From a virus (Duplodnaviria; Heunggongvirae; Uroviricota; Caudoviricetes): a stretch of DNA of 11,019 nucleotides. Positions within the stretch are counted from its first letter, which is position 1. Each line of letters opens with the position of its first letter. The notes under the pieces are model-generated. The model made no database searches and was not told the origin of the DNA. It saw only the letters and a program-made list of their open reading frames with translations. Location: IMG/VR virus record IMGVR_UViG_2600254997_000001; one strand, given 5' to 3'. Both the position numbers and the translations under genes were made by a program. This document shows, piece by piece, positions 9,588 through 10,148 of this stretch.

Positions 9588-9830
9588 ATGAATAGTCGAG
9601 TAACCAACTCTGAGTCGTACATATTTTCTGCAATCATCTACATTGGCAAAGATAACTTCACCAGTAACGATGTAGCAAAAATTCTTATCGAGCGATTTTC
9701 ACTTCCGAAAACTTATTTAAAGGCAAAAGCTTTTACTTATAATCAAATTCAATACCTGGTTAAAAAAGGACTATTAAACAAAGTAAGAAAAACAGGAGTG
9801 TATCAATATTTATACTCAACCACATCTTAA
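9588..9830 (+). CDS. Small hypothetical protein (80 aa), possible winged-helix DNA-binding fold; AT-rich
   Basis: ATG start. The C-terminal segment YNQIQYLVKKGLLNKVRKTGVYQYL resembles a recognition helix plus beta-hairpin wing. Ends at a single TAA (9828-9830), after which the same frame stays open to 10148. Confidence 0.4.
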   Translation: MNSRVTNSESYIFSAIIYIGKDNFTSNDVAKILIERFSLPKTYLKAKAFTYNQIQYLVKKGLLNKVRKTGVYQYLYSTTS

Positions 9831-9851
9831 TTCAATGTCGCAATAACATGC

Positions 9852-10148
9852 GTGGAATTAATTGAGGCAACCCCAAAGCCTTCCTGTCAACTTGTTTCAA
9901 GTGCTACCAGTCATGAACACAGGAATATAAACATCCAAATAAATTCTCTTATTGAAAAACACAGCAGTGAGTTGGCGAAAGTATCAGGAGCAAAGGAGAT
10001 TTATGAAGAATTGATAGTTGCTGTGCCGAGCAGGAAAAATGAATTCAGGAAGCTTTCTCTTGAACAAGAGAAAAAACACATTAAGATAAATGAAAAAATA
10101 AACACATTAATTGGAATTATTAATCAATCTGTTGCAATAATGCAATGA
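9852..10148 (+). CDS. Hypothetical Lys/Glu-rich, probably helical protein (98 aa from a GTG); may be the C-terminal continuation of the 9588 ORF interrupted by one stop codon
   Basis: Same frame as 9588-9830. No in-frame ATG and no Shine-Dalgarno before the GTG at 9852. No recognisable catalytic motif. Confidence 0.3.
   Translation: MELIEATPKPSCQLVSSATSHEHRNINIQINSLIEKHSSELAKVSGAKEIYEELIVAVPSRKNEFRKLSLEQEKKHIKINEKINTLIGIINQSVAIMQ

Follow-up and report, generated by a model that had tools for sequence, protein, structure and literature searches.

The window, by which we mean the whole stretch of 11,019 nucleotides analysed here (IMG/VR record IMGVR_UViG_2600254997_000001), opens with the end of an inovirus-like prophage (1-3262), which carries DUF2523, Zot and secretin genes and is 99.2% identical to prophages of 27 E. 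coli genomes. Relatives have intact zot and secretin genes (1,059 and 1,260 nt), which in the window are split into several ORFs, pointing to several frameshifts within these 3 kb. In no complete E. coli genome is this prophage joined to the island that follows it here. Where the filamentous-prophage side meets the island side, positions 3236-3262 hold the 27-mer GTGCGCATAATGTATATTATGTTAAAT, which we take to be an exact E. coli dif site. This 27-mer also precedes ginA by ~145-170 bp in loci of E. coli, Salmonella, Enterobacter and Pseudocitrobacter, and its recurrence at that position across genera places this group of GInt islands immediately beside dif (next to hipBA in E. coli).

The island side begins with a ginABCD-type recombination operon on the plus strand (3409-8863), comprising ginA (3409-4809), ginB (4793-6066), ginC (6063-8429) and ginD (8429-8863). 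In that order, the genes correspond to two integrases, a 788-aa tyrosine-recombinase-like protein and a 144-aa coiled-coil protein; the Gin proteins of an intact relative (L003) measure 466, 516, 788 and 144 aa, and the synteny of the operon is conserved in nine genomes. The Phage_integrase model matches ginB at 7.6e-10, with weaker matches to ginA and ginC; for the ginC of the window, no integrase model is matched at a significant level. The ginB gene of the window has lost 278 bp after ~4869 and gained 1 nt near 5595; these changes break it and leave two overlapping ORFs (4818-5726 and 5491-6066) in place of an intact 516-aa protein (WP_000086931.1). The ginABCD organisation is what defines GInt islands (Bardaji et al. 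2017, PMC5385486; PMC10214605), and such islands are known to carry defence systems in E. coli (Hochhauser et al. 2023, PMC10121019). As in other GInts, the first two genes are integrase-like, the third is large and tyrosine-recombinase-like and the fourth is small with a coiled-coil product; all four stand at one end of the island and variable cargo lies beyond them, and on this gene order and the gene sizes the island is classed as GInt-type.

In published GInts, the cargo starts directly at the ginD stop codon, whereas in this enterobacterial group a conserved regulatory module intervenes. In the window it consists of a short ORF (8980-9174) and the gene for an XRE-family helix-turn-helix regulator (9158-9490), both on the minus strand, a 97-bp divergent control region (9491-9587), a plus-strand reading frame (9588-10148) that is the main subject of this analysis and that we describe below as vspR-like, and a conserved non-coding tail (10149-10360). 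A hairpin in this tail (10189-10217; fold z-score -3.3) is followed by a T-run on the minus strand and may be a minus-strand terminator; a search of the window with Rfam returned no RNA family. Homology among islands ends at ~10324-10360, such that the E. coli island as a whole is shared from 3236 to ~10360 and then gives way to different cargoes. Here the cargo starts with ptuB, the HNH effector gene of the retron Ec78 defence system, on the minus strand (10369-11019; NCBIfam PtuB equivalog 5e-64, in agreement with PGAP), and full-length relatives carry an ABC-3C system beyond the retron Ec78/ptuAB cargo. We found no mention of the XRE/vspR-like module in the published accounts of GInts that were searched.

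The frame at 9588-10148 translates as 80 codons, a TAA at 9828-9830, a further 105 open codons and a TGA at 10146-10148. Translation thus bears out the first-pass annotation, which had described two ORFs sharing one frame with the TAA as the sole break and had added that the second part has neither an ATG nor a ribosome-binding site. Indeed, the earliest in-frame start after the TAA is a GTG at 9852, with no Shine-Dalgarno-like sequence upstream. Given the segment's own base composition, a run of 105 codons would stay free of stops by chance with P = 2e-4, and just 28 of 200,000 shuffles kept the tail open (P ~1.4e-4), while each of the other five frames across the tail contains 4-10 stops. 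A run of this length is so improbable that the split frame is not a product of chance. The tail is richer in lysine and glutamate than the first part (21% against 14%), as had been noted.

Comparison with relatives identifies 9588-10148 as one gene of 186 codons, made a pseudogene by a single G-to-T change that turned GAA (Glu81) into TAA at 9828. The region has 258 matching records, which come from 253 of the 5,426 complete E. coli genomes searched. For copies with 99.6-99.8% identity across window positions 9450-10300, NCBI PGAP annotates a 561-nt pseudogene with an 'internal stop', and like them the window copy lacks an uninterrupted reading frame. In copies that are ~94% identical, the same 561 nt encode an intact 186-aa protein, with GAA in place of the TAA; alignment and codon comparison with a Salmonella allele agree on this exchange. 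A protein search gave 91 clusters in Enterobacteriaceae, whose full-length members (182-187 aa) are unbroken at codon 81, and remote relatives of 166-205 aa also span both halves. Among 13 distinct DNA copies from outside the TAA lineage, none has an internal stop and all 13 have Glu or Asp at codon 81. Of the options that the first-pass annotation had left side by side, namely a single gene of about 186 codons with a nonsense mutation, a read-through stop, or a gene followed by an unrelated tail, the first is therefore the correct one, and the others are not supported. The look for contiguous homologues that it had suggested found relatives running straight through the stop position, and the outcome that it had named as a refutation, i.e., homologues ending at the TAA or no conservation of either part, did not materialise, since the full-length relatives outside the TAA lineage are all continuous.

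Selection on the intact copies supports the same conclusion. Their dN/dS is 0.18 over residues 1-80, 0.44 over the linker and 0.20 over residues 111-186, and the low value after the stop position indicates that the downstream part is true coding sequence in the family. Both halves are thus under purifying selection in relatives, with dN/dS of about 0.2. The stop itself is no sequencing error, given that the exact 61-mer around it occurs in seven records from six complete E. coli genomes and that the exact 80-aa product has been deposited from at least nine contigs.

These data also bear on whether the two parts could be two genuine genes, an 80-aa winged-helix protein and a separate 98-aa coiled-coil protein starting at the GTG at 9852. 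The 98-aa ORF does appear in the mechanical ORF list, and database fragments with one half only exist. However, many of these one-half entries come from short contigs or are flagged as partial, two of the entries have arisen as deletion fusions, the GTG has no ribosome-binding site, and coding sequence runs without a break from one part into the other in every relative outside the TAA lineage. Two genes are therefore a very improbable reading of the locus. In the two fusions (P0092 and P0098), a GinA-like or GinC-like N-terminal part is joined to a vspR-like C-terminal part, and they are further examples of decay in the island backbone.

Programmed read-through or recoding would require that the TAA be decoded at some frequency and that an 80-aa and a 186-aa product both be intended. 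The frame that stays open for 105 codons past the stop is compatible with this, as is the persistence of the allele in several unrelated isolates; a recent origin of the mutation accounts for the open tail, however. In E. coli, translation terminates most efficiently at a TAA with a T as the next base, and the base after the TAA of the window is a T. Codon 81 is a sense codon in all other family members, and the allele is limited to six of the 253 carrier genomes. The substitutions of the lineage argue against read-through as well. The closest intact allele (P0006) comes from a Salmonella enterica island of the same type with the same cargo, and from the window to this allele there are six nucleotide differences, every one of which changes an amino acid or the stop (S8P, stop81E, N83D, I114V, H125Y and K150E). 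The window consequently carries Y125H at a tyrosine that is invariant or nearly so in the family. Variants among the TAA carriers are likewise amino-acid-changing, and one copy (L005) has acquired a second stop, Q180*. Taken together, the exclusively amino-acid-changing substitutions, Y125H, Q180* and the strong stop context indicate loss of function as opposed to read-through or two genes, and we give read-through hardly any credence.

The TAA is thus most likely a plain loss-of-function mutation that was followed by drift, with the regulator dead in the TAA lineage. A selected loss would be an alternative, in that truncation could have been favoured because it derepresses the defence cargo, or because the 80-aa stub acts as a monomeric or dominant-negative regulator. 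The stub would retain an entire DNA-binding domain (see below), the allele has been found in isolates from humans, poultry, seawater and a bear from several countries, loss of vspR raises CBASS transcripts in V. cholerae (PMC10653837), and every substitution in the lineage changes an amino acid. On the other hand, the substitutions are too few to separate positive from relaxed selection (0.75^9 ~0.08), the six genomes may represent one clone, and no target site for the regulator was identified. Between neutral decay and selected derepression, the broken ginB in the same window fits a general decay of the island and tips the balance that way; in E. coli relatives with the TAA allele, ginB is intact. 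Selected loss accordingly appears improbable, and we retain neutral decay as the preferred account of the TAA allele.

A structural model of the intact allele, built with AlphaFold on 30 homologues (mean pLDDT 84), depicts a winged helix-turn-helix domain followed by a C-terminal helical hairpin. The predicted N-terminal domain has helices at residues 8-19, 26-36 and 43-59 and wing strands at 63-67 and 74-78 (pLDDT 87-96), so that the 'wing-like' end of the first ORF noted previously would be the beta-hairpin wing at residues 63-78. Beyond this domain, the model continues with a short helix, a disordered linker (98-109) and a long helical hairpin (109-145 and 147-185) that is likely a dimerisation or effector domain. 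The closest fold matches among solved structures are PadR, VanR and AphA, and members of the PadR family (B. subtilis PadR 5x11, VanR 5z7b and AphA 1yg2) likewise combine an N-terminal winged helix-turn-helix with a C-terminal helical dimerisation domain in ~180 aa. This resemblance holds at the level of fold only, as Pfam PadR models gave no match up to E = 1. Mapped onto the window, the part that can still be translated (9588-9827) would encode the entire winged helix-turn-helix domain, in line with the deposited 80-aa product, and the untranslated remainder (9831-10145) would encode the linker and the VspR_C-like hairpin. The predicted completeness of the DNA-binding domain means that the 80-aa remnant could retain some activity.

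Standard family libraries are silent on this protein. Scans of both halves and of the intact protein against Pfam, PHROGs, NCBIfam and PADLOC gave nothing significant, and neither did a profile search against PDB sequences give a meaningful match. Matches to MerR_1, EarA, IFT57 and AbiEi in the family-library scans were at chance level and were discarded. The Pfam copy scanned contains no VspR_N or VspR_C models, and even a protein that is named VspR and has both domains annotated (P0150) went unmatched. It is therefore understandable that the first-pass annotation recognised no family here; an answer emerges nonetheless from more distant searches, which point to a remote member of the VspR family.

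A profile of the enterobacterial family searched against 1.84 billion representative proteins returned just 46 matches, including full-length proteins of 170-190 aa at E = 1e-4 to 5e-8. Three proteins matched directly by this profile (P0117, P0118 and P0119; E = 9e-7 to 9e-6 in the 1.84 billion proteins) each carry both Pfam VspR_N and VspR_C. Searches started from the profile matches retrieved a large Vibrio and Photobacterium family with both domains, V. cholerae VspR among its members. Closer to the window, precomputed annotation assigns VspR_N to P0034, a protein 80% identical to the intact E. coli allele, and VspR_C to P0110; most close relatives have no precomputed Pfam match, and in mostly falling below the Pfam VspR models the enterobacterial members differ from V. 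cholerae VspR. An hhalign comparison of the enterobacterial family with bona fide VspR gave E = 1.5e-4 over 150 collinear columns at a probability of only 51.5%, lending moderate profile-level support to homology over both domains, and the pairwise link to V. cholerae VspR itself is weak, with a BLASTP E of 0.005 and about 23% identity over the matched stretch.

Length and architecture are consistent with such a relationship. A length of ~170-190 aa with an N-terminal DNA-binding domain and a C-terminal helical hairpin would be expected of the family, and the model of the intact allele agrees with this; VspR (VC0177) has 187 aa, against 186 aa here, and the same order of an N-terminal helix-turn-helix-like domain and a C-terminal hairpin. 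The model of V. cholerae VspR shows the same confident hairpin, with its N-terminal domain poorly predicted. Genomic context is the strongest support for the link. The VspR gene also has a divergent XRE partner across a spacer of ~100 bp that contains two palindromes 34 bp apart, and VSP-1, like the island in the window, is horizontally acquired and combines defence genes with a four-gene recombinase-like module. Homology through intermediates, together with this context, makes a moderately strong case that the 186-aa protein belongs to the VspR family as a remote member, with the window copy, unlike VspR, being a pseudogene.

The gene of the XRE partner at 9158-9490 (Pfam HTH_3 7.5e-9) is a homologue of VC0176 of VSP-1 (60% identity, E = 1e-43), and its product also matches the PADLOC Control_protein model (5e-26) and, below the curated cut-off, the RstR repressor family. 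V. cholerae vspR is divergent from VC0176 across 102 bp, compared with 97 bp in the window; the same divergent layout within an acquired island was found in four loci (L023, L024, L026 and L027) and also in L025, where the XRE gene is uncalled. The XRE genes of the window and of Salmonella islands L019-L022 are 100% identical in nucleotide sequence, against a difference of ~3% over the shared backbone, reflecting either unusually strong conservation or a recent exchange of the XRE gene. Shortened 71-aa calls for the Salmonella protein are an artefact of gene calling, because the DNA is identical to that of the window.

The spacer between the two genes (9491-9587) contains promoter-like hexamers on both strands and two perfect palindromes of the form CTTAG-N5-CTAAG, which we designate as predicted operators O1 (CTTAGattgtCTAAG, 9517-9531) and O2 (CTTAGcaatcCTAAG, 9551-9565, 34 bp from O1). 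The palindromes overlap -35 and -10 hexamers of the promoter-like sites on both strands, with O1 covering the -35 hexamer of the promoter predicted for the 186-aa gene. CTTAG-N5-CTAAG occurs nowhere else in the window, nor elsewhere in the 26-kb island locus. Every enterobacterial locus examined has the same spacer core without change, including loci with different flanks whose 186-aa protein shares only 52-59% identity. In V. cholerae and another Vibrio, palindromes of the form CTAAG-N5-CTTAG, i.e., with the half-sites swapped symmetrically, occupy the same two positions at the same spacing.

The type of operator tracks the sequence of the XRE protein (MNHYEKGRH as opposed to MNQYEKGKH) and not the VspR-like partner. 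This is illustrated by L025, which has the same XRE and operators alongside a VspR-like protein only ~20% identical to the window family. From this association we infer that the XRE protein binds the operators and represses both promoters. The VspR-like protein would then act at sites other than the palindromes, although no binding site for it was identified. Control of the module by XRE, as proposed in the first-pass annotation, is thus plausible insofar as two conserved palindromes overlap both predicted promoters. The layout recalls cI/Cro-type switches and the C proteins of restriction-modification systems, in that an XRE repressor is divergent from a second regulator and two dyad operators overlap face-to-face promoters. 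The second regulator in the window differs from Cro in that it would be a winged-helix and hairpin protein rather than another XRE protein, and, unlike in the C-protein and phage systems, no phage or restriction-modification genes are attached.

The short ORF next to the XRE gene (8980-9174, minus strand, 64 aa) holds only the C-terminal toxin-binding domain of MbcA/ParS/Xre antitoxins (Pfam Xre_MbcA_ParS_C 2.6e-11; NCBIfam Xre_ParS_antitoxin, profile positions 55-112 only). The ORF shares 17 nt with the end of the XRE gene, read in a different frame. Several related loci have it only in fragments, and it may be the relic of a split or frameshifted antitoxin. Its presence beside the XRE gene, and that of hipBA beside the region in E. 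coli, could be taken to mean that the 186-aa protein is the toxin partner of an antitoxin composed of the XRE protein and the MbcA/ParS domain, and that the stop has inactivated it. Yet neither a RES domain nor any other toxin domain is present in the 186-aa protein, whose predicted fold is DNA-binding, and none of the backbone genes gives a RES match either. Moreover, the gene order is divergent, unlike that of antitoxin and toxin genes in an operon, many loci combine an intact 186-aa gene with a fragmented MbcA-domain ORF, and no homologue of the ORF was found beside the Vibrio XRE/VspR pair. We consider a toxin-antitoxin role scarcely credible and continue to read the 186-aa protein as the second regulator of the pair.

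The low G+C content of this region had been put down to separately acquired cargo. The compositional observation is correct, as G+C is 0.33-0.36 across 9450-10350, compared with 0.41-0.53 in the recombinase genes and 0.41-0.46 in the HNH gene, but the explanation offered is not supported. The XRE/vspR-like module is present in all nine species-representative loci and is adjoined by the gin operon wherever enough upstream sequence is available; across these loci, the Gin proteins fall to ~30% identity, while the XRE protein stays at 94-97% and the VspR-like regulator at ~80-97%. Since the module accompanies such diverged recombinase operons and many different cargoes, and also occurs in VSP-1, it is conserved backbone and not cargo, and the low G+C is a property of the module itself. 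Its position is not the same everywhere. In Enterobacter ludwigii (L014-L016) and in VSP-1, the module sits at the opposite end of the island and points to the ginD-like genes, and other XRE/VspR pairs of the Vibrio type adjoin integrases, helicases and restriction-modification cargo. Many copies of the module have a third regulator, a 98-aa HipB-like helix-turn-helix protein encoded ~300 bp downstream of the vspR-like gene (L001 1424-3012; L002 340-1933; L009-L014); modules of the window type are without it, and there the cargo begins ~175-212 bp past the stop. Some genomes contain up to four places that match the module, in tandem island remnants.

We therefore propose, with a probability of about 0.8, that the locus is a nonsense-inactivated regulator of the VspR family, paired with a divergent XRE regulator at the edge of a GInt-type defence island. 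The intact protein would be a small transcription factor that binds DNA, belongs to the VspR family and has two domains arranged as in PadR, and together with the XRE protein encoded at 9158-9490 it would form a two-regulator switch. An XRE dimer most likely binds the two CTTAG-N5-CTAAG palindromes over both face-to-face promoters, and would thereby repress its own gene as well as the vspR-like gene. In the TAA lineage, translation of the latter would end after the 80-residue winged helix-turn-helix domain, and the linker and C-terminal hairpin would be lost.

For the targets of the intact protein, V. cholerae offers the only guide, as DNA binding and repression of island genes are known only for its VspR (PMC10653837, PMC9674212). 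This VSP-1-encoded protein is a negative regulator of the CBASS operon capV-dncV-cap2-cap3 (PMC10653837, PMC9674212), and both VC0176 and VC0177 have been listed as H-NS-associated (PMC4829181). By analogy, the 186-aa protein probably represses genes of its own island, be they cargo or recombination genes. The ginABCD operon flanks the module on one side and the variable cargo, here retron Ec78 with PtuAB and the ABC-3C system, on the other. In VSP-1, vspR is co-directional with its CBASS target operon, whereas the cargo in the window is convergent to the vspR-like gene and shares no operon with it, making direct repression of the cargo less obvious.

VSP-1 may resemble these islands beyond the regulatory pair. 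One of its ends (VC0182-VC0185, at 16097-20564 of L023) comprises four co-oriented genes for proteins of 143, 703, 562 and at least 314 aa, the order and sizes of which match ginD-C-B-A or an SE-type module, with a coiled coil as the small protein. Neither BLASTP nor phmmer gave anything significant between the VSP-1 recombinase-like proteins and the E. coli Gin proteins, the former have just a faint match to an integrase SAM-like Pfam model, and no link between VSP-1 and GInts or SEs was found in the papers searched. With no significant sequence similarity detected, the view of VSP-1 as a GInt stands on gene order alone. A bolder scheme would treat the VC0176-type XRE/VspR pair as a portable switch that marks the boundary between recombination genes and cargo in gammaproteobacterial islands (E. 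coli GInts at dif and VSP-1) and gates the defence cargo or excision; VSP-1 would then be an island of the GInt or SE type, and the TAA a selected loss that permanently derepresses the retron Ec78 island. As a whole this scheme is speculative and unlikely to be right.

The window copy is an ordinary pseudogene of a poorly known gene family, and its two ORFs should be annotated as one pseudogene, as is already the case in the public annotation of near-identical genomes. Of wider use is the family itself. Several hundred enterobacterial 'hypothetical proteins' can now be linked to the VspR family, with an XRE partner and an operator layout as in V. cholerae VSP-1 and a fixed place in anti-phage GInt islands, which provides a testable handle on the regulation of defence islands. 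By the same comparison, these islands and VSP-1 seem to have a regulatory module in common, and perhaps a mobility module as well. A switch composed of XRE and a branch of the VspR family would thus appear to sit at the edge of GInt-type islands, and would be of mild interest for understanding how defence islands are regulated.
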